A stretch of DNA of 23,498 nt, taken from IMG/VR virus record IMGVR_UViG_2537561944_000018; one strand, given 5' to 3'. Shown in pieces: positions 6,740 through 23,498 of the stretch (position 1 is its first letter; each line of letters begins with the position of its first letter). Made by a program: the position numbers and the translations under genes. This stretch comes from a virus. Lineage: Duplodnaviria > Heunggongvirae > Uroviricota > Caudoviricetes. Under the pieces are notes generated by a model. That model saw nothing but the letters and a program-made list of their open reading frames with translations, was not told the origin of the DNA and ran no database searches.

Positions 6740-6740
6740 G

Positions 6741-7406: not shown

Positions 7407-7411
7407 TCTGC

Positions 7412-7828: not shown

Positions 7829-7835
7829 CGGCGAT

Positions 7836-8260: not shown

Positions 8261-8622
8261 GCCGTAGCCCCTTCTTGATATTTTTCAAACCAGAACACAA
8301 CTGGGTCAGATTTCATTTCAACCAATCCCATACGAACCAGCGCTTTGCCTTTCCCGGACGCAAGGAATTCACGACGACCATCACTGATAATTCGCCGATA
8401 ATCTTCCAGACTACTGCAATGCTTGTGCAGATTGCATGGGTGGCATGCCGGAACCATGTTGGATATATCGTCACGTTCCTGGTGAAGCATATTTCCATCA
8501 AAACGAATGACCGGTTTTACATGGTCTGCATGCCACTTTTCGCCAAGTTCGCAGCCGCAATAAGCACAGCGACCGCCGAACTTCATGCGCAGCTCTGCAC
8601 GTTGTTTTTTCGTCAGTGCCAT
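8257..8622 (-). CDS. HNH endonuclease, 121 aa
   Basis: Internal ATG at 8622 with AAGGA upstream; CAYCGCEL...HADHVKPV...CHPCN HNH motif. Confidence 0.8.
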
Positions 8623-8623
8623 A

Positions 8624-8842
8624 TCAGCTTTCCTTATACGGATTAATTTTATTGTGCAGTGTGCTGAACGACGCCCACACCACGTCGTTATACAATTCAA
8701 TAACTGGCTCAATTATTTTCACGATAAACCAGACCAGTAATAGCGGGGGTATCGGTATCATCAACACGATAAATATAATGAGAAACAAAAATTCTGTCGC
8801 TCTACTTTTTCTCGGATATTCTTTTCTGAATAATGTAGTCAT
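8624..8842 (-). CDS. Small membrane protein, 72 aa
   Basis: ATG at 8842; central hydrophobic stretch FLFLIIFIVLMIPIPPLLLVWFIVKII; stop TGA 1 nt before the HNH ATG. Confidence 0.5.
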   Translation of the reverse strand: MTTLFRKEYPRKSRATEFLFLIIFIVLMIPIPPLLLVWFIVKIIEPVIELYNDVVWASFSTLHNKINPYKES

Positions 8843-8847
8843 TTCTT

Positions 8848-8872
8848 ACCGCCCTTTCAGGCGGCCTCCTGA
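8848..8872 (-). promoter_or_regulatory. SD-hairpin element, copy 1 (structured ribosome-binding site)
   Basis: Minus RNA UCAGGAGG-CCGCCU-GAAA-GGGCGG, 6 nt before the AUG at 8842; 24/25 identical to 9920-9944. Confidence 0.5.
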
Positions 8873-8929
8873 TGTTTTGAGGGTGCAGAAATCCCTCCGG
8901 TTAAGGATTAAATTTTTAACTAAATTTAA

Positions 8930-9565
8930 TTATTCAGGCGCGATAAGCTGTTCCGCACAATCCAGCAATGCTTCTGTCGCTTCCTTAAGCGTTACTGTAT
9001 CGCTATCATCCAGTCCTGCAACTTTTTCGTACCTGACAAACGCCGCGCAAAGCTCGTTAAACAACCCCGCCCGTACTTCAGCCAGGAAAGCGTCGGTGGC
9101 CGGAGTTTCAGGAATCCGTCTCCTCATCCGTTCTATTGCATGATTGAACCCGAAATCTTCAGCAAGAGATACGTCATCCATATTGTCATTGTCGTCCTCA
9201 ATATCCCGTGGTTCTGGAATTGCAGACTTTATTACCGCATTCTCCGCCGCCAGCGCCACAAGATTAGCTTTCAGCTCTGCAATTCGTTTGTTTTGGGCTT
9301 CCCGTTCATCCAGTAGTGCCAGCGCAACATTTGGATTAAAAGCAGCAATAAATTCAGCGTTTGCATAAGCCTGAACATCTGTTTCAACCAGGCAGTTAAC
9401 ATGACATTCTGCAATTACGCCACCGGGCTCTCCTTTCCATTTTTGACAAACAAAAACTCCTGTTATATTCCCATGCTGATTGCCCGATGTATGCCCTACG
9501 ATGTAGCATCCTTTAGTTGCTTTCTCTGCTGCTTCACGCAGCGCCTGATAGTCAATCTCGCTCAT
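8930..9565 (-). CDS. Ead/Ea22-like protein, 211 aa
   Basis: N-terminal MSEIDYQALREAAEKATKG characteristic of Ea22-like proteins as recalled; ATG overlaps the upstream stop (ATGA). Confidence 0.75.
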   Translation of the reverse strand: MSEIDYQALREAAEKATKGCYIVGHTSGNQHGNITGVFVCQKWKGEPGGVIAECHVNCLVETDVQAYANAEFIAAFNPNVALALLDEREAQNKRIAELKANLVALAAENAVIKSAIPEPRDIEDDNDNMDDVSLAEDFGFNHAIERMRRRIPETPATDAFLAEVRAGLFNELCAAFVRYEKVAGLDDSDTVTLKEATEALLDCAEQLIAPE

Positions 9566-9738
9566 TCATCGCCCCACTCATCACAATATGCTTCGACCGG
9601 ATTTTTTCCTGCTTCATAATCATCACGCCATGCTTCAGCATCAGCAGCACTGCCACCACGTAACTCTGCATATTCCATTAACAGTTCATGCCATTCTTCA
9701 AAACTGACGCTGTATTTAGTTGAACCAAAATCAGCCAT
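9562..9738 (-). CDS. Hypothetical acidic small protein, 58 aa
   Basis: ATG at 9738 (4 nt before the upstream TGA), stop overlaps the Ea22-like ATG; MADFGSTKYSVSFEEWHELLMEYAELRGG.... Below the ORF-track cutoff. Confidence 0.5.
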   Translation of the reverse strand: MADFGSTKYSVSFEEWHELLMEYAELRGGSAADAEAWRDDYEAGKNPVEAYCDEWGDE

Positions 9739-9913
9739 TTTGTTCTTCCTCTTCGTCTTTTATTTCGTGATATGAATAATTGCAGTAGTTAAAGAAAATA
9801 TCTTTTGCTTCGTCATGTATTTCATCAGGCGTCGCATCATCATCCACTTCGAATTCATCCTCGAAATCTCCACCGGCTATTCCCGTTTCAATAATTATTT
9901 TAAACTTTCGCAT
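9731..9913 (-). CDS. Hypothetical acidic small protein, 60 aa
   Basis: ATG at 9913 preceded by SD-hairpin copy 2; coupled to the downstream ORF. Confidence 0.55.
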   Translation of the reverse strand: MRKFKIIIETGIAGGDFEDEFEVDDDATPDEIHDEAKDIFFNYCNYSYHEIKDEEEEQNG

Positions 9914-9919
9914 TTAACT

Positions 9920-9944
9920 ACCGCCCTTTCGGGCGGCCTCCTGA
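9920..9944 (-). promoter_or_regulatory. SD-hairpin element, copy 2
   Basis: Minus RNA UCAGGAGG-CCGCCC-GAAA-GGGCGG, 7 nt before the AUG at 9913; the loop-closing pair is C-G here versus U-G in copy 1. Confidence 0.5.
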
Positions 9945-9946
9945 CA

Positions 9947-10159
9947 TTAATCGTTGTGGTAACTCATGGCTTCATTTGCAACATCAACCGGATCAACCTC
10001 CCACCAGCAATAATTTGGTGCGTTTCCTTCAGGTGTCCACGGTTCTAATTCATTTTTTGCCGCATTCTCATCGCCAGTAATTTTAAAAATCTGCTCAGAG
10101 AATTTTCTTGCCCACTCGTTATATTTTTCCGCATTAATGGCTTTCTGTGTATTTAACAT
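9947..10159 (-). CDS. Hypothetical small protein, 70 aa
   Basis: ATG at 10159 with GGAGG 7 nt upstream. Confidence 0.55.
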   Translation of the reverse strand: MLNTQKAINAEKYNEWARKFSEQIFKITGDENAAKNELEPWTPEGNAPNYCWWEVDPVDVANEAMSYHND

Positions 10160-10209
10160 AAATATACCTCCAGTTCAGGATTAGATTTTATTTACAGCGC
10201 TAAATTTAT

Positions 10210-10566
10210 TTATTCAGTTCTGGATTTTGTCGCCCTGCGTATCCGCGCTTTCGCGTTACGTTCAATCTGAATTAACTTTTCTATATTTTTCCGCCTTTCC
10301 TGTTCCTCCTGGCGCAATAGCCTTACATCATCTGCCAGTCTGGTTTCTCTTTTCGCCACAGAGAGCATCCAGTCAAACGGCTCCACAACCGCACCGCAGA
10401 TTTTACAGCGGACCTGGCGCTCTTTTTCGTCAACCCGAACAGAGGCGTGATGACAATATGGTCTTTCCGATGGCTCATAAAGAAAATTAACCTGATTACG
10501 AGGGTCATCCTCTTTTACCGGAAATAAAACGATATTGCTTAACTCATCCTCTGGTTTTATTTCCAT
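10210..10566 (-). CDS. Hypothetical protein with Cys/His zinc-binding motif, 118 aa
   Basis: ATG at 10566 preceded by AAGGAGAGGAG; CHHASVRV...CKICG motif; start overlaps the upstream Ea22-like 3' end. Confidence 0.6.
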   Translation of the reverse strand: MEIKPEDELSNIVLFPVKEDDPRNQVNFLYEPSERPYCHHASVRVDEKERQVRCKICGAVVEPFDWMLSVAKRETRLADDVRLLRQEEQERRKNIEKLIQIERNAKARIRRATKSRTE

Positions 10567-11005
10567 GCTCCTCTCCTTTGATGCGAATGCCAGCGACGCG
10601 TAATGCGTGTTCTAGGTCAATCAGGTAAAGCCAACTGCCATTTTCTTTAGGTATCATGACATGTCGCTCATCTGCATTTATCGGGTGTCCATATCGAAGG
10701 TCGTAGCGAGTCGGTAATTGAACTTCCCGCGCATCCAGTTCAGCAATACGCTTGCTCCCATCAGAGATAACGCCTTCGTAATACTCACGCTGCTCGTTGA
10801 GTTGTGATTTTGCTTCTTCCAGTCCATCCAGCAAACCAGCGATAATATCCGCTTCCCGATGACGGATATGACGCTTAAACGCAGCAAGAGCCGCATCACA
10901 ATCCCGTTCAGCATTTGGGCTGTCCGGGGTAGCCTGATACCACGCCAGCGTCGACTGATAGTTTTGTGCTGCCTCACGAAGCGCCTCATAGTTAACCTCT
11001 CTCAT
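10544..11005 (-). CDS. Ead/Ea22-like protein (paralog), 153 aa
   Basis: N-terminal MREVNYEALREAAQ; AGGAGG 7 nt upstream of ATG 11005; ATGA overlap with the DUF4406 stop. Confidence 0.7.
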   Translation of the reverse strand: MREVNYEALREAAQNYQSTLAWYQATPDSPNAERDCDAALAAFKRHIRHREADIIAGLLDGLEEAKSQLNEQREYYEGVISDGSKRIAELDAREVQLPTRYDLRYGHPINADERHVMIPKENGSWLYLIDLEHALRVAGIRIKGEEHGNKTRG

Positions 11006-11298
11006 CGAGCCACCTCCTGATAAATCACCGCATGCCCCAGTTTCTCCGCCAGTGCCAGCTCTGCCTTAGCGCCCGCTGACCGCTGCCAGCCATTCAGCAT
11101 GTAAATCGCATCCACACAACGAATCATTGCCATGCAAATATCCATGTAGTGCGGCTGTGTCAGCCCGTCCGGAAGTACTGCCGGAGTTAAGACGGTATGC
11201 CCTTCCCGTTTCAGTTCCTCTTCCGCCTTGTGAAACGCCTCACGGTTGAAATTTTCATATCCCGTCATTGGACCGGCAATATAAACTCTCACCCTCAC
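11002..11298 (-). CDS. DUF4406-like protein (nucleoside deoxyribosyltransferase-like fold), 98 aa
   Basis: GTG at 11298 preceded by AGGAGG with 7-nt spacing and overlapping the upstream TGA (GTGA); VYIAGPMTGY motif. Confidence 0.65.
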   Translation of the reverse strand: MRVRVYIAGPMTGYENFNREAFHKAEEELKREGHTVLTPAVLPDGLTQPHYMDICMAMIRCVDAIYMLNGWQRSAGAKAELALAEKLGHAVIYQEVAR

Positions 11299-11687
11299 TC
11301 CATCACCTCCTGAAAGTTTCCCCGATAGAACGCCAGCACACGCTGCATAACTTCGCTCTGGCGGCACTCACGACAAATTATGTTCTGCCGTCTGTTGTAA
11401 CGACGTATTTCTCCGTCAGGTAACTTTCGAATCAGTGTCGGGTCAGCAGCCTTCTCCGGTGTCTTACGCCATACGCGATACGCCTGCTCTGATGGAAATA
11501 CCCCGCAACCAGAGAGCCAGACATCACCACTGGCCGCAAGCGCACCAGATAAACGACGAATAGCGGTCTTACTGACACCCGTTTTATCTGCCAGTTGTCG
11601 AAAAGTTTCTCGTCCGCTCAGGCGCACGAATTCCACAATGCGCGCCTTCACTTCTTCCCGCTCTTCTGGTGTAAATTCTTTTGCCAT
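11295..11687 (-). CDS. Hypothetical HTH-containing protein, 130 aa
   Basis: ATG at 11687 with GGAGG 5 nt upstream; HTH-like TFRQLADKTGVSKTAIRRL and a C-terminal CRECRQ. Confidence 0.6.
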   Translation of the reverse strand: MAKEFTPEEREEVKARIVEFVRLSGRETFRQLADKTGVSKTAIRRLSGALAASGDVWLSGCGVFPSEQAYRVWRKTPEKAADPTLIRKLPDGEIRRYNRRQNIICRECRQSEVMQRVLAFYRGNFQEVME

Positions 11688-12024
11688 AAGCGCCTCCGGC
11701 AATCACTTTTCCGATACAACACGGCGGGAAGAATCAGTAATCTGTCGAACAATATCCCGGTGCTTGTTCAGCTCCCGCAGCGCGGCGCAGACTCGCTCCC
11801 ACTTCTGAACCTGACCTTTTGCCCGGCGCAGCTCGCGGTTAGCCACATGCAGCGATGGTAAAATCAGACCATCCGGATGTTTTCTGGTGAACGACGGCTG
11901 TGACTGCACTGTGACCGCCACACTTTCCGTTTTTATTTCTTCCTGTGTTTCTGCTTCCCGTGAGGTAGCCTGAGTTTAACGGACACTCCTTCCTGAAATA
12001 GAATGGCATCAGAAGGAGCTAATA

Positions 12025-12327
12025 ATGAGCAGAAAAACCCAACGTTACTCTAAAGAGTTCAAAGCCGAAGCTGTCAGAACGGGTCTCGAAAATCAACTTT
12101 CGATCAGTGAAGGCGCTTCCCGATTATCTCTTCCTGAAGGCACTTTAGGACAATGGGTTACCGCCGCCAGAAAAGGGCTCGGTACTCCTGGTTCCCGCAC
12201 GGTGGCTGAACTGGAATCTGAAATTCTGCAACTGCGTAAGGCGTTAAATGAAGCTCGCCTTGAGCGAGATATATTAAAAAAAGCAACAGCGTATTTTGCA
12301 CAGGAGTCGCTGAAAAATACGCGTTAA
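12025..12327 (+). CDS. IS3-family transposase OrfA (HTH), 100 aa
   Basis: ATG at 12025; MSRKTQRYSKEFKAEAVR... typical IS3-family OrfA with a leucine-zipper-like C-terminus. Confidence 0.8.
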   Translation: MSRKTQRYSKEFKAEAVRTGLENQLSISEGASRLSLPEGTLGQWVTAARKGLGTPGSRTVAELESEILQLRKALNEARLERDILKKATAYFAQESLKNTR

Positions 12328-13181
12328 TCGAACAATGGCGACAACAATTTCCCATTGAAGCGATGTGTCAGGTATTTGGTGTATCCAGGAGCGGTTATTA
12401 CAACTGGGTACAGCATGAACCCTCAGACAGAAAACAAAGTGATGAGCGGCTAAAACTGGAGATTAAGGTGGCACATATCCGCACTCGCGAAACATATGGA
12501 ACCCGGCGGCTCCAGACGGAGCTGGCAGAGAATGGCATCATCGTTGGTCGTGACCGACTGGCACGTCTTCGTAAGGAGCTAAGGCTACGCTGTAAGCAGA
12601 AACGCAAGTTCAGAGCGACTACGAACTCGAACCACAATCTGCCAGTTGCGCCAAATCTGCTGAACCAGACGTTCGCTCCTACAGCACCAAATCAGGTCTG
12701 GGTGGCGGACCTGACGTATGTTGCCACACAGGAGGGATGGTTGTACCTCGCTGGCATCAAAGATGTTTATACGTGCGAAATTGTCGGCTACGCCATGGGA
12801 GAGCGCATGACAAAAGAGCTGACAGGTAAAGCTCTGTTTATGGCGCTCAGGAGCCAGCGCCCACCTGCCGGGCTAATCCACCACTCTGATCGAGGTTCAC
12901 AGTACTGCGCATACGATTACCGGGTCATACAGGAGCAGTTTGGTCTGAAAACATCAATGTCGCGTAAAGGTAACTGTTACGACAACGCTCCGATGGAAAG
13001 CTTCTGGGGAACGCTGAAAAATGAGAGCCTGAGCCACTATCGTTTTAATAACCGGGATGAAGCCATCTCAGTAATACGGGAATACATTGAGATTTTCTAC
13101 AATCGTCAGCGTCGTCACTCTCGTCTGGGGAATATCTCCCCGGCAGCCTTCAGGGAAAAATATCATCAGATGGCTGCTTAA
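12264..13181 (+). CDS. IS3-family transposase OrfB (DDE/rve integrase domain), made as an OrfAB fusion by -1 frameshift
   Basis: The -1 frame is open from 12264; slippery A AAA AAA G at 12276-12283 inside orfA; DDE motifs (...HHSDRGSQY...YDNAPMES...). Confidence 0.75.
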   Translation, partial: ARYIKKSNSVFCTGVAEKYALIEQWRQQFPIEAMCQVFGVSRSGYYNWVQHEPSDRKQSDERLKLEIKVAHIRTRETYGTRRLQTELAENGIIVGRDRLARLRKELRLRCKQKRKFRATTNSNHNLPVAPNLLNQTFAPTAPNQVWVADLTYVATQEGWLYLAGIKDVYTCEIVGYAMGERMTKELTGKALFMALRSQRPPAGLIHHSDRGSQYCAYDYRVIQEQFGLKTSMSRKGNCYDNAPMESFWGTLKNESLSHYRFNNRDEAISVIREYIEIFYNRQRRHSRLGNISPAAFREKYHQMAA

Positions 13182-13728
13182 AAAAAGAACAAATGGTAGT
13201 GTCCGCTATTGCCAGTACACCTCACCGAACTGGTAACGCAACACCTGCTGGCTGAGGAAAGGCTTTACCATCGGTTTCCGCTACGGATGCAGCTTCCGGC
13301 TCTGCCGGTAAATCAGCGCCCGGTATGCAGTAACGAAATTTACCGCCCTGATTCACGCGAATCAGACGCCCTTTGCTGATTACCATGGCCAGCGATGAAT
13401 TCGCCCGGCGGGAGGTAATCCCGAACATCAGTGCCAGCTCATCCGCCGTTTGTGGGCCATGTTGTTCAATCGCCTCAGTCAGCATTTGCGCTGTCACTTT
13501 CGGTACCGGTGACACCGGTTCACTTTCACCAGCCTGAATCAGCCACCACATCGACCCCTTGTTATCCGCTTCACCGCGGCGCTTCAGTTTCCACAGTTCG
13601 TTGACCGCATCTTCACGGCTGATTCCAAGGCGGGCCGCCACTACCTGTGAAGAGGCTCTTTTCAGTGCTTTCAGTGCGTCAAATACGGTTTCCATTAAAA
13701 TTTCCTCCGACAAAATCGTTTCTCAGAT

Positions 13729-14391
13729 TCAAATAAAACCAGCTGCCTTCCGGCGTTCGTATTCCTGTTTCAGCCGCTCAATTGGCGTTGGCCCTTGCGG
13801 GTGTTTCGCCCCTTCCAGTTGTCGTCGCACTGGCGGAACACTCATCCCGTTACCAACATGCTTTGCCCATTTCGTCAGTTGCCGTTCTGCAAGTAGTTTT
13901 AACTCACCCTGCGTCATCTGGCGCTCAATCCCTCTGGTACGCATTTCGAGGCAGATGTGGTACAGCACAGGCTGTGGCCACGGGTATTTATCACTCCCGT
14001 CGTATCGCCAGGATTCATTGCGCCAGCGCCGGTACTCTTCCATCACGGCATCCACCGTAAGACCAAATGGATTTGCCCCACTCTCCGAAATCAGCGCAAC
14101 AAACTCAGCCAGGTCCGGGGGCCACGTTTCACCCGCCCGGCAGCGGTCCATGCACTGACGGCAGACCAGACGGATTTGCTGTTCAGTCATCGCACCAATC
14201 TGGGCAATCCAGAGCTTCGAAGGTGCGGCCCCGTTCTTCTGAGTCCAGCGGTTCGAATACACCTCCCCCATAAGCTCCCACAGCTTCCAGGCCGTTTCCG
14301 TTGCTGATAAATCCGTTTTCACGTTCCCACTGTTCGCGTGCTGCCCGGATTTCCTGAACTGCCCGTGATGCCGTGCCACCTGATGCTGCAT
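13729..14391 (-). CDS. Lambda P-like replication protein (helicase loader), 220 aa if started at 14391
   Basis: C-terminal two-thirds resemble lambda P as recalled; ATG 14391 has AGGGGG 6 nt upstream but overlaps the O-like gene by 209 nt; in-frame ATGs also at 14271 and 14190. Confidence 0.6.
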   Translation of the reverse strand: MQHQVARHHGQFRKSGQHANSGNVKTDLSATETAWKLWELMGEVYSNRWTQKNGAAPSKLWIAQIGAMTEQQIRLVCRQCMDRCRAGETWPPDLAEFVALISESGANPFGLTVDAVMEEYRRWRNESWRYDGSDKYPWPQPVLYHICLEMRTRGIERQMTQGELKLLAERQLTKWAKHVGNGMSVPPVRRQLEGAKHPQGPTPIERLKQEYERRKAAGFI

Positions 14392-15193
14392 GGCTTACCC
14401 CCTTGCTGACTGGTTTTACCTGTGCCCTGACGTGCTGCACGTGGCGGGCAAATTTCTGCTCCCACTGAACCTGCGTGAAAACCTTCCCCTCCGCCATCCA
14501 GTAATCCCGGAATGCGGCAAGCTCAGCAGGTGTAAATTCCGGCTCAGGCAGAGCCATACCCCACACTGCTGCCCGTTGTCGAAAATCCGGCGACGGCTGC
14601 CAGACAGTAGTCATCGAAAATTTCCCGATCGGTTCGCTCAGGCCGTCCAGGTATTCAGGTTCGGCTGTCTGCAACGGCGCACCATGCGACTCACTGGTCG
14701 GAATACTCTCGCGTTCACGCACGTTATGTGTGGGGTTTAATTCTTTTAGATCTGTATCTTTATTAGTTGCTTTTGTGTTTGCGTCATGTTCAAACACAAC
14801 ACCAACATTTGTTTGAACACCTGTTAAATCTCTCTCTTGTTTTGTTTGAACATATGCTTCCTTTCTGCTTCTTCTGGCCTGAACAGATGCTTTTCCGGCG
14901 GCTGATTTTTTGGTCAATTTTTCCCTGACTGATGCCAGATCTTCCTCAATCCGAAGATGCACCCATTCATCGCTGTTATCGCAAAAAAACTCCCGCAAGG
15001 ATGGTTCCACATCAGCCCATCGCTCGTTAGTCAGACGGGAAATTTTTGCCAGCCTGTTTTTAGGTATTGGTTTCCCTGTTTGCCAGTAATTGAACATCAG
15101 CAACAAATACGCACCGTGCTCCTCTGCGGACAAATGCATGGTGTCAGCCAGGTAATCAGCTATGTACAGTTGCATGTATGGTAATGCGGCCAT
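14183..15193 (-). CDS. Replication initiator, DUF1376 N-terminal domain (O-like / YdaU-like), 336 aa
   Basis: ATG at 15193 with GAGG 5 nt upstream; MAALPYMQLYIADYLADTMHLSAEEHGAYLLL DUF1376-type N-terminus. The track ORF starts at TTG 15247. Confidence 0.7.
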   Translation of the reverse strand: MAALPYMQLYIADYLADTMHLSAEEHGAYLLLMFNYWQTGKPIPKNRLAKISRLTNERWADVEPSLREFFCDNSDEWVHLRIEEDLASVREKLTKKSAAGKASVQARRSRKEAYVQTKQERDLTGVQTNVGVVFEHDANTKATNKDTDLKELNPTHNVRERESIPTSESHGAPLQTAEPEYLDGLSEPIGKFSMTTVWQPSPDFRQRAAVWGMALPEPEFTPAELAAFRDYWMAEGKVFTQVQWEQKFARHVQHVRAQVKPVSKGVSHAASGGTASRAVQEIRAAREQWERENGFISNGNGLEAVGAYGGGVFEPLDSEERGRTFEALDCPDWCDD

Positions 15194-15279
15194 AATTGCC
15201 TCATCTTGTGACGAACCATCCTCTGGTGATATTCTGTGATTCCCCAATCAACAGAATCAGCAGGGGTCTGGCATAAATA

Positions 15280-15717
15280 TCAATGCACCACAACAGACTC
15301 GCCGGATGACCCGCCGTCGCTGAAATACGCTTTCCGGTAAACTGCCTGGACTGCATCATCATGCGCATCAATTGCCGTGCTCAACGCTTCCTGGGCCGCC
15401 AGTAATGCACGGCGCTCAACAGTGTCAAAAATACTGAGGTGATAACGCAGTTCACGCGGAAGAACAGTCAGGATAGCTGGAATTAGTGCCTGAATTTTTT
15501 CAACAGCATCAGGCGTATCCTTTTCAAGCCAGCGAAAAATATTTTGTATGTTCAATCCAATACCCTCTGTCGTAGAGGTGTCATGCATTGGTGGATAAGT
15601 CATTTCAAGCTCAAAATATGCTGTCGCTATATCATCAGCGATTTTTTTGCGCCCTACCCTCGGATAAAGCAGCCACGCATTCATCGCCATGCGGATGTGC
15701 TCATGCTTGATTTTCAT
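15280..15717 (-). CDS. YdaT-like protein (cII position), 145 aa
   Basis: ATG at 15717 overlaps the Cro-like stop (ATGA); C-terminal ...ERRALLAAQEALSTAIDAHDDAVQAVYRKA resembles Rac YdaT as recalled. Confidence 0.65.
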   Translation of the reverse strand: MKIKHEHIRMAMNAWLLYPRVGRKKIADDIATAYFELEMTYPPMHDTSTTEGIGLNIQNIFRWLEKDTPDAVEKIQALIPAILTVLPRELRYHLSIFDTVERRALLAAQEALSTAIDAHDDAVQAVYRKAYFSDGGSSGESVVVH

Positions 15718-15974
15718 GAATCAACTCCCGCCGCTGCTTGTGCGTTAGCCTGATACTCAACAGGTAAACCATCGGTTGGATTAGGGTATTTATCAGGGCG
15801 CAATTCATGCGGAGTTACTCCCCAGTCAAGCGCCTCACATGCTGGTATAACCTCCTCCGCTGGCACTCGTTTTTTAAACCACCCACTTATGGTTTGCGGT
15901 GTTTTACCAAGACGACGCCCTAATTCTGATTGGCTCATTATTGACAGGATTTTCACTTGAGTACTTTTTTGCAT
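15714..15974 (-). CDS. Cro-like HTH regulator (YdaS/DicC-type), 86 aa
   Basis: ATG at 15974 with GGAGGG 4 nt upstream; HTH SQSELGRRLGKTPQTISGWFKKR; divergent from the repressor gene. Confidence 0.75.
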   Translation of the reverse strand: MQKSTQVKILSIMSQSELGRRLGKTPQTISGWFKKRVPAEEVIPACEALDWGVTPHELRPDKYPNPTDGLPVEYQANAQAAAGVDS

Positions 15975-16100
15975 GTTTCCCTCCGAACTTTACGATGACA
16001 CCGATAATTACAAATTTAAATTTAAATTTCAACTTCTATTTGTAATGCCACTTATCAATTTTTTCTGTAGGATCGCGGAACTAGTTTACGAGGGGTGGTG
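15975..16100. promoter_or_regulatory. Divergent promoter/operator region between the Cro-like and repressor genes
   Basis: Contains AATTACAAATTTAA (16006-16019) and its inverted partner ATTTGTAA (16038-16045) flanking a TTTAAATTTAAATTT repeat; candidate -35/-10 elements on both strands. Confidence 0.5.
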
Positions 16101-16493
16101 ATGATCTTTGTAAAACGCCTTCAGCAGGTGTTGCAGGAATTGAATATAAACCAGTCAGAGCTGGGAAGACGTCTTGGTGTAAAACCCCAATCCGTGCAAG
16201 GTTGGTTGAAAGGCGTGATGCCAAGAATGGATAAACTGGAAAAATTAGCAGAGCTCTCACAACATCCCGTCCATTGGTTCTTTATGGAAGAAGAAACTCT
16301 CGGCGATAAAATGGCTGTATCCAGTAATGACAACCAACCGCAACTTACAGAACAACAACGAAAAATCATATCGCTTTTAGATGAGTTACCTCAAAGCGAC
16401 GCAGAGCAGATCATTCGTGATATGGAGCAAAAACGCGATTTCTATAAACGGAAACTTGAAGAGTTACTGCGGCAGAAAAACAAAACTGCCTGA
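16101..16493 (+). CDS. DicA-like prophage repressor (HTH-XRE), 130 aa
   Basis: ATG at 16101 with AGGGG 5 nt upstream; N-terminal HTH LNINQSELGRRLGVKPQSVQGWLKG and a DicA-like C-terminus (...LPQSDAEQ...YKRKLEELL) as recalled. Confidence 0.8.
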   Translation: MIFVKRLQQVLQELNINQSELGRRLGVKPQSVQGWLKGVMPRMDKLEKLAELSQHPVHWFFMEEETLGDKMAVSSNDNQPQLTEQQRKIISLLDELPQSDAEQIIRDMEQKRDFYKRKLEELLRQKNKTA

Positions 16494-16539
16494 TGCATTC
16501 CTTTTCTGGAACGAGCATCAGGCAAATGACTAGCAGATT

Positions 16540-16898
16540 TTATAATCCAACCAGGCTTTCCAGGGGGATACCAAATTGATTATGAAGACGGCGAATCATT
16601 GGTAACGTAAGGCTTCTGGTACCATTCAACACCTCATAAACCCGATTTTTTTTCCCAATTGCGGGTTCCAAATCTTTCACAGTCAGCCCCTGCTGTTCCA
16701 TGCGAAATCTTATAGCTTCAATTGGGGATGGTGGCTCAATGGGATAATGTTTTTTTCATATTCCTCTATTAGCAAACACATCACCTCAAAAAAATCCCCC
16801 TCAGGCGTGTCAATTTCGGGCTCATTGTCGAACATGGGTTCAACAGCACGCAACGCGGCTTCATAATCTTGCTCTGTACGAATAGGTTTGATGTTCAT
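16540..16898 (-). pseudogene. higA: HigA-like antitoxin, frameshifted at an A7 tract
   Basis: The N-terminal 62-codon ORF (16898-16710) stops shortly after an A7 run (plus T7 16750-16756); the -1 frame continues through an HTH-XRE domain to TAA 16542-16540. One extra A would give a 120-aa protein. Confidence 0.65.
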
Positions 16899-16900
16899 GC

Positions 16901-17203
16901 TTACTCCAGTTCGATGGTATCAGCATCAATAGCATCGTATTCCTTGTGGTTTCCGATGAATTTAACAAATACCCATCCTCGCTGATACGCAATTGCAACA
17001 ATTAAACGGTAATGATTACCTTTTATGTTGAATACCACGCGCCGGTTTTTCAATATACTGGCCGTTCGGTATTGTGCCTTAATGTCTGCTGGGCTTTTCC
17101 AGTCAGCTTTTGCCGCCTCATCCACCCATGCCCTTAGCGGTTGTTCTGCATCAGGATTCTCCGCCCAAAAATCCCTGAGTGTTTTAACTGAGATAATCTT
17201 CAT
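16901..17203 (-). CDS. higB: HigB-family toxin (RelE/ParE superfamily), 100 aa
   Basis: ATG at 17203; ...VVFNIKGNHYRLIVAIAYQRGWVFVKFIGNHKEYD matches the E. coli HigB motif VFNVGGNELRVV...THKEYD as recalled; toxin-first order, stop 2 nt before the higA ATG. Confidence 0.75.
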   Translation of the reverse strand: MKIISVKTLRDFWAENPDAEQPLRAWVDEAAKADWKSPADIKAQYRTASILKNRRVVFNIKGNHYRLIVAIAYQRGWVFVKFIGNHKEYDAIDADTIELE

Positions 17204-17246
17204 AACTGTATAGTAGTCCCATTTTGGGACTGATGCAACAGCCCGC

Positions 17247-17300
17247 AATTACAAATTTAATAATAAACATGTTGACCAGTTAAATTTTAATTTGTAAATT
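17247..17300. promoter_or_regulatory. Second operator-like site with candidate rightward promoter (PdicB-like) upstream of higB
   Basis: Exact 14-mer AATTACAAATTTAA (17247-17260) plus inverted ATTTGTAA (17290-17297); plus-strand TTGACC (17272-17277), 17-bp spacer, TAAATT (17295-17300). Confidence 0.45.
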
Positions 17301-17616
17301 GTATCCATAAACCCACCCCGCCCCACAGAACGCAGGGCAATACTTCGAGTTACCCGGCAGTGGTCAGGGGTTAAGTAGCCAGCCTGAGGCGTATGAACAT
17401 GACGGCGGGGATTACGTTTAACTATGCAGCAGGTTTTTTGTTCCGCTACCCCGGCGTTAAGGGGAAACAGAGGATTTCTCAGTGGGCGAAGTCAAACATC
17501 AGAATGGAAGGCATCCAGGGATCAGCAAAGAAACAGCGATGGCGCTTTATATTGATATCAGCGCCATTGCCGGACAGGTAAGAATTATCAGAGCGGTAAC
17601 TAAGCGGTATGCGCCT

Positions 17617-17817
17617 TTACTTCAGAAAGTCTCTGGTGAGTGCACCGAAGATATTGTCAACGATTTCGTCATCAAACTGCGAGGACTCATCTTCAGTTAC
17701 AAGGTGACCACAATTTTTGCAGATGGCTCCCGCGAAACTGTCAGAGCCATGCGGTTTAAAGGATGTGTCAAAGACTTCGCCACCACATACTGGGCAAGAA
17801 AACTTGATTGTATTCAT
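17617..17817 (-). CDS. Small zinc-ribbon protein (CxxC-N20-CxxC), 66 aa
   Basis: ATG at 17817 with GAGAGGAA 7 nt upstream; CPVCGG...CKNCGH. It lies antisense to a 118-codon plus-strand ORF (17482-17838), so the call is uncertain. Confidence 0.45.
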   Translation of the reverse strand: MNTIKFSCPVCGGEVFDTSFKPHGSDSFAGAICKNCGHLVTEDESSQFDDEIVDNIFGALTRDFLK

Positions 17818-17909
17818 AACCAATTTCCTCTCGAGTAACAGACCCCTCAGAGGATACCACCTCGCCTGACGTGGTTAAAAGCAGGCAGCGCTAACCACAA
17901 GGAGCCGAC

Positions 17910-18128
17910 ATGCAGAAACGAGAACCCGTCATCATCGCGCCAGACTATACCGATGATGAACTTTATGAGTGGATGCACCAGAAAATTAAGGCAGCGCAGG
18001 ACCTGAAATGGGCCAATGAAGCCAGGGCTAAGCAGGCTGAAAATCTGTCCGCTCTGGAGCAGGATATCACCAATCTGGAAAAAGCAGCGGCATTAAGCAT
18101 TGCCAGAATGATTACATACCCGCGTTAA
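17910..18128 (+). CDS. YdfC-like small protein, 72 aa (assigned by position and length only)
   Basis: ATG at 17910 with AAGGAG 5 nt upstream; sits immediately upstream of dicF as ydfC does in Qin. Confidence 0.65.
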   Translation: MQKREPVIIAPDYTDDELYEWMHQKIKAAQDLKWANEARAKQAENLSALEQDITNLEKAAALSIARMITYPR

Positions 18129-18468
18129 TAGCTAACCAACGAAGCTAAGGTTGGTAATTAAGGAGTTCTCCACGGGTGAGGTGGAGTGCGTGCGCCGGAC
18201 ACGGGTGAGCATCCGGCACTGACAGTTTACTGAAAGGATATTCCCTGAAAAGTCAGACCATAACGCGAAAGCGCACGGCGAGGTAGCTGGTTCATAGATA
18301 GCCTGTCGTTAAATTTTCGTCGACCGTGCGCTTCCGGTTGTGGCAATCCGCGAAATGGCGCGGCGGTAAGTATGGCGGGGTTATTCCTTCCCCAGTTGAG
18401 GACACCGGGTTGTCAGGTTGACCATACGCTTAAGTGACAACCCCGCTGCAACGCCCTCTGTTATCAAT

Positions 18469-18526
18469 TTTCTGGTGACGTTTGGCGGTATCAGTTTTAC
18501 TCCGTGGCTGCTCTGCCGCCCTTTTT
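18469..18526 (+). ncRNA. dicF: DicF small regulatory RNA with its U-tail terminator
   Basis: TTTCTGGTGACGTTTGGCGGTATCAGTTTTACTCCGTGGCTGCTCTGCCGCCC followed by T5; matches the DicF sequence as recalled, with one apparent A-to-G difference; lies just upstream of the dicB homologue. Confidence 0.8.
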
Positions 18527-18695
18527 AAAGTGAATTTTGTGATGCGGTGAATGCGGCTCAGCGCACGCGGAACAGTTAAAACCAAAAACAGTGTTATGGG
18601 TGGATTCTCTGTATCCGGCGTTAATTGTTAACTGGTTAACGTCACCTGGAGGCACCAGGCACCGCATCACAAAATTCATTGTTGAGGACGCGATA

Positions 18696-18884
18696 ATGGA
18701 AACGTTATTACCAAACGTTAATACGTCTGAAGGTTGTTTTGATATTGGTGTTCTGCTCAGTAACCGGGAGTTTACTGAAGATGCCATTAATATGAGGAAA
18801 TATGAGCCTTATCTGCTCAATGATAATTCCATACTTTCCCGAATTGCTCTTCTTGAACTTGGTATTTTCGGAGAACGTCAATGA
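18696..18884 (+). CDS. dicB: DicB-like cell-division inhibitor, 62 aa
   Basis: ATG at 18696 with GAGGA 7 nt upstream; METLLPNVNTSEGCFDIGV... matches the DicB N-terminus as recalled; same 62-aa length. Confidence 0.8.
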   Translation: METLLPNVNTSEGCFDIGVLLSNREFTEDAINMRKYEPYLLNDNSILSRIALLELGIFGERQ

Positions 18885-19069
18885 CTTCAGCATTTGCACT
18901 GATGATGACGGTTTTTCTTATAACGGGTGAATCACAGAATGTGATTACCGGAATTTATGCCAGTAAAGAATCCTGCCTCCAGGCAAGAGACGAGCAAAAA
19001 ATTTCTGGTGAATGCCTCCCGGTAAAAAAAGTATCGCTGTACCTGAATAACGAAACACCGGCTGGATAA
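18881..19069 (+). CDS. YdfD-like small lysis-associated membrane protein, 62 aa
   Basis: ATG overlaps the dicB stop (ATGA); N-terminal hydrophobic helix MTSAFALMMTVFLITG and ...EQKISGECLPVKKV resemble YdfD as recalled. Confidence 0.7.
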   Translation: MTSAFALMMTVFLITGESQNVITGIYASKESCLQARDEQKISGECLPVKKVSLYLNNETPAG

Positions 19070-19163
19070 CCCTCCAGCCATATTAACACCATACCAACGG
19101 ATTAAAAATGCCAGCAATGGCAGGGATTCGTTCACCCTGAAATCTGTAATGAGGTAAAACAAA

Positions 19164-21083
19164 ATGAGTAAAGTCTTTATTTGCGCCGCCATTCCGGACG
19201 AACAGGCAATAAAGGAAGAAGGTGCAGTCGCTGTAGCCACTGCCATTGAAGCCGGTGATGAACGTCGCGCCCGCGCAAAATTTCACTGGCAATTCCTGGA
19301 ACATTATCCGGCTGCTCAGGACTGCGCTTATAAATTTCTTGTTTGCGAGGATAAACCCGGTATTCCCCGCCCTGCCCTCGATTCCTGGGATGCTGAATAT
19401 ATGCAGGAAAACCGCTGGGATGAGGAGTCTGCTTCCTTTGTCCCGGTTGAGACTGAATCAGATCCGATAAACGTCACTTTTGACAAGCTGGCCCCTGAAG
19501 TACAGAACGCTGTCATGGTTAAGTTCGACACATGTGAAAACATCACCGTTGATATGGTGATTAGCGCGCAGGAACTGTTGCAGGAAGACATGGCAACATT
19601 CGACGGACATATCGTTGAAGCGTTGATGAAAATGCCAGAAGTTAACGCCATGTATCCGGAGCTTAAGCTGCATGCCATCGGGTGGGTTAAGCATAAATGT
19701 AAGCCAGGTGCCAAATGGCCCGAAATTCAGGCAGAGATGCGCATCTGGAAAAAACGTCGCGAAGGTGAACGCAAGGAAACCGGAAAATACACGTCTGTTG
19801 TTGATCTCGCCCGCGCCAGAGCCAATCAACAGCACACTGAAAATTCAACAGGAAAAATCAGCCCGGTCATTGCTGCCATTCATCGCGAATACAAGCAGAC
19901 ATGGAAAACACTGGATGACGAACTGGCCTACGCTCTCTGGCCTGGTGATGTGGATGCCGGAAACATTGACGGCAGCATCCATCGCTGGGCAAAAAATGAA
20001 GTTATCGACAACGACCGCGAAGACTGGAAGCGTATCTCGGCATCAATGCGCAAACAGCCTGATGCCCTTCGCTACGACCGCCAGACTATTTTTGGCCTTG
20101 TCCGTGAACGTCCGATCGACATTCACAAAGACCCTGTGGCACTGAACAAATACATTACTGAATACCTGACTACAAAGGGCGTGTTTGAAGATGAAGGAAC
20201 AAATCAGAGCGCAACTGATACTCTCTCGTCGCCAGTACCAGAAACTGATGCAGTGGAAACGGCAATTCCGGACAACGAAAAAACCGAATGCAAAGTGGAA
20301 GTCGAACCATCTGTAGAGCGTGAGGGGCCGTTCTACTTCCTCTTCACCGACAAGGATGGCGAAAAATACGGTCGCGCAAACAAACTTTCTGGTCTGGATA
20401 AGGCACTGGCTGCCGGGGCTACTGAAATCACGAAAGAAGAATATCTTGCCCGCAAAAACGGAACATACACGGACTTACCGCAAAATGTGGATACCGCTGA
20501 AGATTCCGTACAACCGGAGCCGGTAAAAGTTACCGCTGACGAAGTAAACAAAATTATGCAGGCAGCCAATATCAGCCAGCCTGACGCCGATAAATTGCTT
20601 GCTGCATCACGTGGTGAATTTGTTGAAGGGATTAGCGATCCGAATGATCCGAAATGGGTGAAGGGGATTGAAACCTGCGATTCTGTGAACCAGAACCAGC
20701 AAGAATCGGAACAGAACGACCAGAAAACGGAACAAAACAGCCCAAATGCGCAACAAAACGAGCCAGAAACGAAACAGGAGCCGGAAAAAGCCTGCACCGC
20801 CTGCGGTCAGACCGGCGGCGGTAGCTGCCCTGATTGTGGTGCGGTGATAAGTGACGCAACATACCAGGAAATATTCGATGAAGAGAATCAGCCTGAAGTT
20901 CAGGAAAATGATCCGGAGGAAATGGAAGGCACTGCGCATCAGCACAAGGAGAACACTGGCGGCAATCAGCATCATGCCAGCGATAGTGAAACTGGCGAGG
21001 CGTCAGATCCCTTAATTAAGGCGAACGGTCATCATAATCTCACATCACCAGCAGAGCGGGATTCATCTGATGATCGACCTTGA
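19164..21083 (+). CDS. Large YdfE-like protein of unknown function, 639 aa, acidic Q/E/N-rich C-terminus with a Cys4 motif
   Basis: ATG at 19164 with GAGGT upstream; CTACGQTGGGSCPDCG near the C-terminus; occupies the ydfE position after ydfD; no enzymatic motif recognised. Confidence 0.7.
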   Translation: MSKVFICAAIPDEQAIKEEGAVAVATAIEAGDERRARAKFHWQFLEHYPAAQDCAYKFLVCEDKPGIPRPALDSWDAEYMQENRWDEESASFVPVETESDPINVTFDKLAPEVQNAVMVKFDTCENITVDMVISAQELLQEDMATFDGHIVEALMKMPEVNAMYPELKLHAIGWVKHKCKPGAKWPEIQAEMRIWKKRREGERKETGKYTSVVDLARARANQQHTENSTGKISPVIAAIHREYKQTWKTLDDELAYALWPGDVDAGNIDGSIHRWAKNEVIDNDREDWKRISASMRKQPDALRYDRQTIFGLVRERPIDIHKDPVALNKYITEYLTTKGVFEDEGTNQSATDTLSSPVPETDAVETAIPDNEKTECKVEVEPSVEREGPFYFLFTDKDGEKYGRANKLSGLDKALAAGATEITKEEYLARKNGTYTDLPQNVDTAEDSVQPEPVKVTADEVNKIMQAANISQPDADKLLAASRGEFVEGISDPNDPKWVKGIETCDSVNQNQQESEQNDQKTEQNSPNAQQNEPETKQEPEKACTACGQTGGGSCPDCGAVISDATYQEIFDEENQPEVQENDPEEMEGTAHQHKENTGGNQHHASDSETGEASDPLIKANGHHNLTSPAERDSSDDRP

Positions 21084-21612
21084 AACCATGGGAAAAAATC
21101 CTGATGCCCCGATTATCTCAATAGGTGCAATATTTTTCGATCCGCAAACCGGAGAGATGGGGCCAGAATTCAGCAAAACTATCGATCTGGAAACTGCTGG
21201 CGGAGTCATTGATCGGGACACCATTAAGTGGTGGCTGAAACAGTCACGCGAAGCGCAATCCGCCATTCTTACCGATGAAATCCCGTTAGATGATGCACTG
21301 CTGCAATTACGGGAATTTATCGACGAAAACTCCGGTGAATTTTTTGTTCAGGTCTGGGGTAACGGTGCAACTTTCGACAACGTGATTTTACGCCGTTCAT
21401 ATGAACGGCAGGGGATCCCCTGCCCGTGGCGTTACACCAATGATCGCGATGTAAGAACGATGGTTGCTCTGGGACTGGTGATGGATTTCGACGCAAGAAC
21501 GACTATTCCATTCGAAGGTGAACGCCATAACGCTCTGAACGATGCACGTTACCAGGCGAAATACGTTTCAGCCATCTGGCAAAAACTGCTCCCGAGTCAG
21601 GCTGATTTTTGA
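21070..21612 (+). CDS. DEDDh-family (DnaQ-like) 3'-5' exonuclease, 180 aa
   Basis: Exo motifs IDLETMG, WGNGATFD and HNALNDARY; start overlaps the upstream gene by 14 nt. Confidence 0.8.
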   Translation: MIDLETMGKNPDAPIISIGAIFFDPQTGEMGPEFSKTIDLETAGGVIDRDTIKWWLKQSREAQSAILTDEIPLDDALLQLREFIDENSGEFFVQVWGNGATFDNVILRRSYERQGIPCPWRYTNDRDVRTMVALGLVMDFDARTTIPFEGERHNALNDARYQAKYVSAIWQKLLPSQADF

Positions 21613-21679
21613 TGTTCAACCCATATCGCCGCCCACCAGCTATAGTGGCGGCGGTCATGCTGTAAAGGCACGTGACCAC

Positions 21680-21922
21680 ATGTACGAATTAACTCTATCT
21701 CCAGCAGAGATTAAAGAGATCACGAAATACGAGCGATACACAAAACAGCAACACCAGTTAAGACTGCACGGCATCCCATTTGTAATCGGCCCTAAAAACG
21801 AACCCATAGTTCTCCGCAGGGATATTCCACACGGTCTGACAACGATGCCAAAAACATCTGAACTGGTTTCTGCTGAACCCGATTTTGAGGCGCTGAACAA
21901 TGGGAAGACCAAGAAAAAATAA
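21680..21922 (+). CDS. xis: Excisionase-like protein, about 80 aa
   Basis: Internal ATG at 21680; resembles lambda Xis in size and position; 3' end overlaps the int start by 23 nt. Start signals are weak. Confidence 0.55.
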   Translation: MYELTLSPAEIKEITKYERYTKQQHQLRLHGIPFVIGPKNEPIVLRRDIPHGLTTMPKTSELVSAEPDFEALNNGKTKKK

Positions 21923-22277
21923 AAAAGATAATGTACTGCCACCGCGGGTTAGATCGAATGGTTACAGTTACGTGTGGAAACCCGAAGGAAGTACAAGAAG
22001 TATAGGGCTAGGAAGAGTGCGGAAAACCAGCGTAGCTAAAGTCTGGCAAAATTATGAACTGGAAAAAGCAAAACTCCACAACATAATGACCGTAGCTAAA
22101 TTATGGCACATGTTTATGGACTCCCCTGCATTTACAGAACTGGCCCCCCGAACCCAAAAAGATTATCGACAACATCAGAAGGCGTTGCTGATGGTATTCG
22201 GAAAAGTGCTTGCTGATAATGTCAAAACTGAGCAGGTAAGAATTTTCATGGATAAACGAGGGCTTGAGAGCAAGTGA
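21900..22277 (+). pseudogene. int: Tyrosine integrase N-terminal fragment (125 codons), truncated by IS insertion
   Basis: MGRPRKNKKDNVLPPRVRSNGYSYVWKPEGSTRSIGLGR matches the lambda-Int arm-binding N-terminus; the frame ends at TGA 22275-22277, the first 3 nt of the IS terminal repeat. Confidence 0.75.
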
Positions 22278-22316
22278 ACCGCCCCGGGTTTCCTGGAGAG
22301 TATTTTATCTGTGAAC

Positions 22317-23207
22317 TCAGGCTGCCAGATCATTATTTCCGATGGAAGCATAATAAGCTTTTTCTGCTTCTGCCGGAGGAATATGGCCCAGCCTTTCCAG
22401 CAATCGTCGATTGTTATACCAGTCCACCCACGTTAGTGTGGCCAGTTCCACTTCTGTCCGGTTTTTCCAGCTATTACGGTGTATTACCTCCGCTTTGTAA
22501 AGACCATTGATGCTCTCAGCCATCGCGTTGTCATACGAGTCGCCAGTACTCCCTGTTGATGCCAGTAATCCGGCTTCCTTAAGCCGCTGCGTGTAGGCCA
22601 GCGATACATACTGAGAACCTTTATCACTGTGATGGATTGTGCCGGACGGCCGACGGGCCCACAACGCCTGCTCCAGTGCATCCAGCACGAATGTTGTTTC
22701 CATGGATGATGAGACCTGCCATCCCACGATGTATCCGGCGAACACATCAATGATAAACGCCACATAAACGAAGCCCTGCCATGTGCTGACCCAAGTAAAA
22801 TCAGCCACCCACAACTGGTCTGGACGTTCTGCCACGAACTGACGGTTTACGCGGTCGCATGCGGCAACGGCTTTCCGGCTGACGGTAGTGCGGACCTTTT
22901 TACCCCGGAGAACACCGGCAAGCCCCATAACTGCCATGAGACGTGCCACAGTGCATCTGGCCACTCTGATACCTTCCCGTAACAACTGACGCCAGACTTT
23001 ACGCACACCGTATACCTGGTGATTTTCATCGTATACGCGCTGTATCTCTTTCTTCAGCCAGTCATCGTGCTGCGCACGGGCACTGCGTTTATCCGGATGA
23101 TGTCGCTGTTGCTGACAATGGTAATACGTTGACGGGGCAATATGCAGTTCGCTGCATACCGGTCCGACCCCGTACTGCTCACGCAGCTTATCCAGCAGTG
23201 GCATCAT
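22317..23207 (-). CDS. IS629-like transposase OrfB (DDE), about 296 aa from MMPLL
   Basis: DDE/rve motifs (...HHSDKGSQY...YDNAMAES...); the frame stays open upstream to 23297, overlapping orfA for frameshift fusion. Confidence 0.75.
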
Positions 23208-23498
23208 TTTTCCAGAGGCGGTCGAACTCCGCCTTCGCAAAATAAGCGGAAGCCTGGCGAAGGATATCGTTACTGCGGCGCAGTTCACGATTTTCACGTT
23301 CCAGCTCTTTCAGACGCTGACGTTCAGCACTGGTGAGCCCACCATCACCGCCCCCGGTATCCCGCTCATGCTGGCGAACCCAGACACGCAGAGTCTCCGG
23401 CGTACAGCCAATCTTTGGGGCAATGGAACAAATTGCCGCCCACTGTGAGTCATATTCATCCTGACTTTCCAGAACCATACGAATCGCCCGCTGACGGA
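23188..23498 (-). CDS. IS629-like transposase OrfA, 5'-partial (start lies beyond the window)
   Basis: ...[39 protein letters not shown]...[26 protein letters not shown]; HTH and leucine-zipper region of IS3-family OrfA. Confidence 0.75.

Follow-up and report, generated by a model that had tools for sequence, protein, structure and literature searches.

A prophage gene joining a RecE-type scaffold to a predicted DexA-family exonuclease, split in one Escherichia coli contig by two single-nucleotide deletions

The DNA considered here is a stretch of 23,498 nucleotides (nt) from a virus of the Caudoviricetes (IMG/VR record IMGVR_UViG_2537561944_000018), referred to below as the window. Within it, the plus-strand interval 19164–21612 lies towards the end of the early-left operon of an E. 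coli prophage. This interval is one gene, and its intact form encodes an 816-amino-acid (aa) modular protein in which a YdfE-type N-terminus and a central region homologous to RecE of the K-12 Rac prophage are followed by a predicted DEDDh 3′–5′ exonuclease domain of the T4 DexA family. The identity and architecture of the gene are regarded as nearly certain. Taken as a whole, the best explanation of the locus is a single RecE-scaffold/DEDDh gene that acts in recombination or in the processing of DNA ends and has no annealase of its own, a reading to which a probability of roughly 0.6 is assigned.

One gene read as two

Two open reading frames (ORFs) are present on the plus strand, at 19164–21083 (639 aa) and 21070–21612 (180 aa), and they overlap by 14 nt. 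An earlier note on this DNA took them for an overlapping gene pair, an intact YdfE-like protein followed by an exonuclease. The ORFs and the overlap are as it described, but relatives that are 99.9% identical carry a single 2451-nt coding sequence (CDS) instead. When 19164–21612 was compared by megablast with 5,426 complete E. coli genomes, the best matches showed 99.9% identity, with 2451 bases versus 2449 in the window, and carried a single annotated feature, “exonuclease”. In two near-identical prophage records the interval is one CDS with an 816-aa product (WP_000048499.1), and the free phage mEp460 likewise has a single CDS for the scaffold and the DEDDh domain together. The match to phrog_2082 also runs from end to end.

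A base-by-base alignment with these relatives reveals just two differences over 2449 nt, both of them 1-nt deletions, located 12 nt apart within 21044–21058 (CC to C near 21045, and GGGG to GGG near 21057). Because these deletions shift the frame, a stop codon arises at 21081–21083, along with the apparent 14-nt overlap, and an internal methionine (M637 of the intact protein) therefore appears as the start of a second gene. In length the locus is the intact counterpart of K-12 YdfE, as the earlier note supposed, but the copy in the window is itself broken.

The distribution of the two forms is uneven. An exact-sequence look-up found the 639-aa product on one contig, the window itself (EIJ17436.1, E. 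coli 900105 (10e)), and the intact 816-aa sequence on 746. Among ~3,950 E. coli genomes that contain the junction, none matched that of the window over its full length at >98.6%, a value that corresponds to the two gaps. Scaffold and nuclease form one uninterrupted ORF in 70 of the 75 IMG/VR loci that carry the DEDDh domain, while the remaining five are broken or truncated at places other than the split seen here. Database relatives of the middle region all continue into PF16473, the family of the nuclease domain.

The split is most probably a sequencing or assembly error at homopolymers; otherwise it is a mutation private to the strain. Insertions and deletions were compared with two independent complete genomes, using positions 13225–23498 of the window for the first (L001) and 1–11960 plus 13225–22274 for the second (L007). 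Seven were found, each of them the loss of 1 nt from a homopolymer of the window, with both references in agreement, and they fall at positions 139 (T6), 190 (T8), 16749 (T8), 18240 (T3), 21045 (C2), 21057 (G4) and 23206 (T6). Substitutions, by comparison, number just ~5–8 per comparison. The change from T8 to T7 at 16749 cuts a HigA-type helix-turn-helix antitoxin (16540–16898, minus strand; 119 aa in relatives) into ORFs of 62 and 53 aa, next to an intact HigB toxin (16901–17248, minus strand; PF09907, E 7e-33). A disrupted antitoxin beside an intact toxin is biologically unlikely and supports contig-wide sequencing error. The contig thus looks prone to errors of this kind, and other frameshifts of the assembly are to be distrusted. 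The deletion at 23206 falls within the frameshift/pseudoknot region of an insertion sequence (IS).

If the frameshifts were real, the locus would be a pseudogene in this strain, or it would yield a 639-aa scaffold and, by re-initiation at Met637, a free 180-aa nuclease. The deposited sequence does carry both deletions, and the 180-aa ORF begins two residues before the first catalytic aspartate and encloses the whole domain. Decay of prophage genes also occurs, as seen in the IS-cut integrase of this prophage and in the five related loci broken elsewhere. This reading is nonetheless improbable, given that the seven deletions in 21 kb are all at homopolymers and accompany so few substitutions, that two of them lie 12 nt apart in 2.45 kb of otherwise unchanged sequence, that another (16749) would inactivate an antitoxin next to its intact toxin, and that the split allele is seen in no further assembly.

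A true operon of two genes, as the earlier note had it, with translational coupling, or a programmed frameshift joining both ORFs was rejected and is close to impossible despite the 14-nt overlap in the window. Relatives read through a single in-frame ORF without any recoding, the split occurs in this contig alone, and bringing the frames together would require a net 2-nt shift divided between positions 12 nt from each other, which does not constitute a recoding site. In annotation, the feature should appear as a single exonuclease gene carrying frameshifts.

Architecture of the 816-aa protein

The C-terminus (aa 635–816; 21070–21612, plus strand) matches PF16473, the Rv2179c-like DEDDh 3′–5′ exonuclease family that includes T4 DexA, with an E-value of 1e-65 and 221 bits versus a gathering cutoff of 27; positions 2–177 of the 177 in the model are covered. 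The catalytic residues are intact. They are D3, E5, D103, H153 and D158 in the 180-aa ORF, equivalent to D639, E641, D739, H789 and D794 of the full protein, with codons at 21076–21078, 21082–21084, 21376–21378, 21526–21528 and 21541–21543. In alignment A5, the ExoI D-x-E, ExoII D and ExoIII H-x4-D motifs are all invariant with respect to D7, E9, D119, H186 and D191 of DexA. Among proteins of solved structure, T4 DexA itself is nearest in sequence (PDB 8KEL; phmmer E 5e-7), and a weak match to RNase_T is present as well. The domain is, to judge by its sequence, a catalytically competent DEDDh exonuclease with a predicted 3′–5′ polarity, in agreement with the DnaQ-like enzyme proposed in the earlier note, and no catalytic residue is missing by comparison with DexA.

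T4 DexA (8KEL/8KEN) belongs to the same DEDDh family, and its five catalytic residues align with those of the window domain. However, DexA is a standalone protein of 227 aa with extra loops and no RecE-type scaffold, it is only ~26% identical to the window domain, its W152 is not conserved there, and its D169 aligns with Leu in a gappy region. It is a phage 3′–5′ DNA exonuclease that takes part in the scavenging of DNA and in double-strand-break repair during intron homing (PMC12153337).

The remainder of the protein had been described as large, acidic, of unknown function and provided with a C-terminal Cys4 motif. It is indeed acidic throughout, with an isoelectric point of 4.3–5.2 by segment, and the motif exists, but in the 816-aa protein its position is central. 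Nor is it an orphan, as residues ~262–618 align with residues 278–591 of K-12 Rac RecE (BLASTP E 2e-56), at ~75% identity across the last 150 residues of the aligned region. The relationship is also visible in the DNA, where positions 20588–21016 are 79% identical to Rac recE. This homology stops at RecE codon ~591, the edge of the RecE catalytic domain, with none further downstream. The NCBIfam exoVIII model (NF007259) is matched by the central region alone (259.7 bits, E 5.4e-77, versus an equivalog cutoff of 1269 bits), and phrog_607 and phrog_412 match the same region.

From the N-terminus onward, the protein begins with a YdfE-type module (aa 1–235; 19164–19868, plus strand) that is 95.3% identical in nucleotides to the K-12 ydfE remnant. 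No family of the local Pfam copy was matched by the 639-aa ORF or by ten scaffold proteins, but database relatives of this module carry the recent accessions PF27430 and PF27432. Its homologs are limited to Escherichia and Shigella at the search sensitivity used. Middle modules common to RecE-family proteins follow (aa 236–465; 19869–20558, plus strand; matches to phrog_607 and phrog_2489). Next comes a segment (aa 466–627; 20559–21044, plus strand) that is ~75% identical to RecE 453–591 and comprises the motif RGEFVEGISDPNDPKW, a zinc-ribbon-like Cys4 motif and an acidic linker; the conserved motif RGEFV(D/E)GISDPNDPKW lies within this RecE-like region. The Cys4 motif, CTACGQTGGGSCPDC, has the pattern C544-x2-C547-x7-C555-x2-C558 (20793–20837, plus strand). 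It is kept in RecE and several relatives and is missing in others, for example P0138, P0123 and P0249.

Two domains characteristic of RecE are not detected in this protein. The Exonuc_VIII N-terminal domain, PF06630, has no match here, although it is present in the DEDDh-bearing siblings P0129 and P0138. The PD-(D/E)XK nuclease domain, PF12684/DUF3799, for which K-12 RecE scores 4e-28, is likewise absent, and PF16473 stands in its place. The large acidic protein is thus best described as a putative non-catalytic scaffold of RecE type bearing another head. The earlier note held that its reading would fail if the protein were a fusion of known domains with assigned function, and this is half the case, since the fusion is evident but the RecE module brings no assigned function with it. 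In RecE, the N-terminal region is dispensable for basic recombination but enhances linear-linear recombination, and its function is unassigned (2023 review, PMC11611040).

The 627-aa non-catalytic part was modelled from an alignment of 30 sequences (A3), the available homologs being too similar to one another. The structure prediction suggested in the earlier note was informative for only one segment, aa 386–437 (20319–20474), which was modelled confidently, with a predicted local distance difference test (pLDDT) score of ~80, as a small unit of two hairpins plus helices, “GPFYFLFTDKDGEKYGRANKL...ITKEEYLARKNG”; the model as a whole is of low confidence (mean pLDDT 39). The same unit is conserved in other classes of scaffold protein described below, those with a Rad52-type domain and those with a short C-terminus, and it may be a discrete binding domain.

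The closest known counterparts are RecE and YdfE. Rac RecE occupies the same lambdoid early-left slot upstream of xis-int, is of similar length (866 versus 816 aa), and shares the homologous central region with its Cys4/acidic linker. A further link is provided by siblings such as P0129, in which RecE's own PF06630 N-terminus is joined to a DEDDh C-terminus. In contrast to RecE, the window protein has a DEDDh (3′–5′) domain where RecE has PD-(D/E)XK/DUF3799 (5′–3′), its N-terminal ~235 aa are YdfE-type rather than PF06630, and no recT follows. The ydfE gene of the K-12 Qin prophage lies in the same dicB-ydfD-ydfE order and is 95.3% identical over its first 767 nt. After nt 767, however, it is cut by IS2, in line with the truncated homologue mentioned in the earlier note, and it therefore lacks the RecE-like linker and the nuclease. 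The K-12 gene is treated as a pseudogene (PMC11430063).

Alternative effectors and a candidate role

Relatives of the 639-aa part are few, with only 248 recovered when 1.84 billion cluster representatives were searched exhaustively, and they show both ends of the scaffold in different combinations. A YdfE-type N-terminus is joined to a DEDDh C-terminus in P0121 and to a PD-(D/E)XK C-terminus in P0127 and P0220. Similarly, a RecE-type (PF06630) N-terminus is joined to a DEDDh C-terminus in P0129 and P0138, and to PD-(D/E)XK in P0137 and P0249. Two additional C-terminal classes have no Pfam match.

The neighbourhood of the gene varies with the effector. RecT lies downstream in 82 of 82 PD-(D/E)XK loci. 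It is immediately downstream in all 80 of those retrieved via the RecE PD-(D/E)XK domain, including one with a YdfE-type N-terminus, and a divergent RecT (PF03837, E 7e-37) accompanies the two further loci (L040 and L042). Single-sequence phmmer missed the latter RecT and Pfam caught it; the DEDDh loci were re-checked by Pfam as well. In the 75 DEDDh loci, RecT, Bet, Erf, lambda Exo and Gam were not found by phmmer, and a Pfam scan of 52 clusters of same-strand ORFs of at least 130 aa from these loci gave no annealase among the 25 of 43 families listed, which include integrases, repressors and IS transposases. These patterns point to a replacement of the RecE nuclease domain plus recT by a lone DEDDh domain. 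They accord with the observation in the earlier note that no Bet/RecT or lambda-Exo-type gene is present in the operon: recT was not found downstream in the window, in L001 and L007, or in mEp460, and Bet, RecT, Erf, lambda Exo and Gam were not found in this prophage or its relatives.

One of the two classes without a Pfam match supplies a third kind of effector, a Rad52-type domain. Its standalone homologs (E ~1e-40) are named Rad52/Rad22 by NCBI and UniRef, and three of them exceed the PF04098 gathering threshold. An AlphaFold model of the domain (pLDDT 78) gave only two significant Foldseek matches in the PDB, both to human RAD52 (E ~1e-6, probability 1.00). A PDB profile search with this C-terminus returned no match, and hhalign aligned it collinearly with a RAD52 sequence at low significance (E 0.026, probability 1.9%). 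Scaffold and Rad52-fold annealase occur as one ORF of 700–800 aa in 80 IMG/VR loci (L199–L278; proteins P0133, P0178, P0262 and P0228). A lambda Gam homolog lies just upstream in five of the Rad52-fusion loci, and Sipho_Gp157 is directly downstream in 5/5 of those checked. PHROGs label these fusion proteins “exonuclease” (phrog_2489/7838), which appears to be a mis-transfer.

Altogether, the comparisons suggest one scaffold with three effectors across phage contigs, namely a PD-(D/E)XK nuclease, a DEDDh domain and a Rad52-fold annealase. A fourth class of scaffold protein (P0124, P0141, P0162, P0186 and P0223; phrog_26058) carries a short conserved C-terminus, “...QQLTIAALxGLCANP...”, in which no Pfam match and no nuclease or annealase domain was found.

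A role in recombination or end processing is favoured because two of the three alternative partners of the scaffold are bona fide recombination proteins. Transcription would proceed through the early-left (dicF-dicB-ydfD) operon, in which this is the final long gene before xis and int. The RecE-type scaffold would supply a function independent of which effector it carries, for instance in assembly or in recruitment to DNA ends or to intermediates of recombination, and the DEDDh domain would use two-metal hydrolysis to strip nucleotides from the 3′ ends of DNA, in the manner of T4 DexA. With no annealase encoded alongside, the pathway would rely on RecA-pathway functions of the host or on annealases supplied by co-resident prophages, and the phage RusA would resolve junctions; RusA is listed without an annealase both in the PGAP annotation of the whole prophage and in the complete mEp460 genome. 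This mechanism, with annealing and strand exchange drawn from the host or a co-resident prophage, is given about even odds as a whole. The nearest functional parallels are lambda Red and RecET, which occupy the same genomic slot and share, by way of the scaffold, an inferred part in the processing of phage DNA ends; in the window, however, the nuclease is of opposite polarity and different fold, and neither an annealase nor Gam was found nearby.

Several points weigh against this role. The argument from domain fusions is indirect, and the model of the scaffold is of low confidence overall, with a predicted template-modelling score of 0.23 beside the mean pLDDT of 39. Digestion with 3′–5′ polarity produces 5′ overhangs, and invasion mediated by RecA or an annealase does not usually start from such ends. 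PF16473 takes its name from an exoribonuclease. Finally, the nearest tested relative in E. coli, EcD (38% identity), has been reported as an anti-phage nuclease and not as a recombination enzyme.

The last of these points leads to the alternative that survives best, namely that the protein is a prophage anti-phage nuclease of the EcD/“HREX” kind, in which the DEDDh domain would degrade incoming modified phage DNA of the 5-hydroxymethylcytosine (5hmC) type and thereby defend the infected cell or the lysogen. In its favour, exclusion functions are frequent in the early-left operons of lambdoid prophages. EcD, an E. coli DexA homologue, cleaves 5hmC-containing T4 DNA, spares unmodified double-stranded DNA and, when expressed from a plasmid, protects against T4 (Kang et al., NAR 2025, PMC12153337). 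It was recovered here from IMG/VR contigs via the published cloning primers, with Ala78 present as stated, and is a homologue of the window DEDDh domain over the full length of the latter (38% identity, E 6e-37). The recovered gene matches both primers, save that the reverse primer as printed contains an additional A, and EcD (HAK9828821.1) is found as a standalone 189-aa gene on the viral contigs L174, L179, L189, L190, L192 and L195.

The residues tied to this phenotype by Kang et al. do not appear to be kept in the window protein, however. Of the two positions linked to 5hmC recognition, that of DexA W152 is Thr in the window protein (“PWRYTN”) and Trp in EcD (“PWCYWN”). At that of D169 the window protein has Leu and EcD has Glu, in a part of the alignment that is gappy and has acidic residues 3–5 positions off. 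The tetramer residue D90 of DexA is retained as Asp in the window protein (D711 of the intact form, D75 in the 180-aa ORF), in contrast to Ala78 of EcD. Moreover, EcD is a standalone protein of ~189 aa without a scaffold, the other fusion partners of the scaffold are recombination proteins, and the gene lies in a repressor-controlled lytic operon and is retained in free phages. On balance the anti-phage reading is possible but unlikely. That the window domain is EcD itself was rejected, in view of the identity of only 38% and the standalone form of EcD.

In Kang et al., the DexA homologues of E. coli are regarded as defence genes of the bacterium, with no mention of prophages or of the fusion architecture; the same paper states that K-12 lacks DexA homologues (PMC12153337). 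The latter statement is consistent with the loss of the nuclease part of K-12 ydfE to IS2.

Alternatively, the DEDDh domain could be a 3′ exoribonuclease like Rv2179c, trimming, for example, transcripts of the pL operon or the small RNA (sRNA) DicF. The best Pfam family is named for that M. tuberculosis enzyme, the weak RNase_T match points the same way, and DicF is encoded in the same operon. This reading is nevertheless very unlikely, as the nearest solved relative, T4 DexA, is a DNA exonuclease, EcD acts on DNA too, and the domain fills the DNA-exonuclease slot of a scaffold whose other fusions are with DNA-recombination domains.

A role in recombination or end processing thus remains the preferred reading, and it can be extended in a more speculative direction. 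The RecE N-terminal part might be a portable “recombination hub” that enterobacterial phages combine with three interchangeable effectors: PD-(D/E)XK with RecT, a DexA-type domain alone, and a Rad52-fold domain with Gp157. The DEDDh version would then be an unrecognised, annealase-independent end-processing pathway of reverse polarity in most E. coli genomes, or else a scaffold-targeted anti-phage nuclease. This wider proposal is tentative and more doubtful than the role itself.

The gene is common. It is matched in 4790 of the 5,426 complete E. coli genomes, often in several copies and in up to nine per genome, and it belongs to a cluster of 18,012 members, whose DEDDh domain is the commonest of the DexA-family domains encountered here in E. 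coli. In this RecE-like phage protein, the residues proposed for 5hmC recognition appear to be absent. The label itself is already known, as NCBI and PHROGs call the gene “exonuclease” or “3′-5′ exonuclease”. Searches of the accessible literature on ydfE with an exonuclease, on RecE with a DEDDh domain and on the Pfam names turned up no pertinent work, and the recombinase survey of Lopes 2010 does not mention such fusions. In particular, the RecE scaffold with a swapped nuclease of opposite polarity, the perfect correlation between the swap and the loss of recT, and the scaffold-Rad52 fusion were not found in the searchable literature. A scaffold module that travels with three recombination effectors would have to play a role independent of nuclease type, which is testable. 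This in turn bears on the N-terminal part of RecE, known to boost linear-linear recombineering (PMC11611040).

The operon and the surrounding prophage

The gene is the last long one of the dicF-dicB-ydfD early-left operon and is followed by xis-int. Upstream in the same operon are the DicF sRNA (18470–18521, plus strand; Rfam RF00039, 75 bits), the cell-division inhibitor gene dicB (18696–18884, plus strand; PF05358, E 2.8e-36, and so annotated in L001) and, directly upstream, a ydfD-like gene with DUF1482 (18881–19069, plus strand; PF07358, E 2.9e-15), annotated in K-12 as the YdfD lysis protein.

Downstream, the earlier note had placed xis and int. The former stands as an intact xis-like DUF4224 gene at the excisionase position (21680–21922, plus strand; PF13986, E 8.9e-9, and annotation of relatives). 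The latter is only an N-terminal fragment (21900–22277, plus strand), incomplete also in L001 but intact, at 1020 nt, in L002 and L007. It is cut by an IS3-family element with transposase orfA/orfB (22317–23478, minus strand; HTH_Tnp_1 and rve), in which Rfam places an ALIL frameshift pseudoknot at 23133–23248. Because this element interrupts the integrase, the prophage is probably unable to excise by itself. The same insertion in the integrase is present in strain E2865.

A second IS3-family element, 1264 bp in length (11961–13224, plus strand), separates the DUF977 and DUF1627 genes, is an insertion by comparison with strain 8D, and contains orfA (12025–12327; HTH_Tnp_1) and orfB (12363–13181; rve). 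The late-regulatory region holds an STnc100 sRNA (2273–2445, minus strand) and a cluster of three tRNAs (3218–3466, minus strand), both located by Rfam; the tRNAs are annotated as Arg, Arg and Ile in a relative. Lastly, the space between higB and ydfC holds, in antisense orientation, a Cys-rich ORF of 68 aa with two CxxC pairs (17617–17823, minus strand), which in relatives bears the annotation “ECs_2282 family putative zinc-binding protein”.

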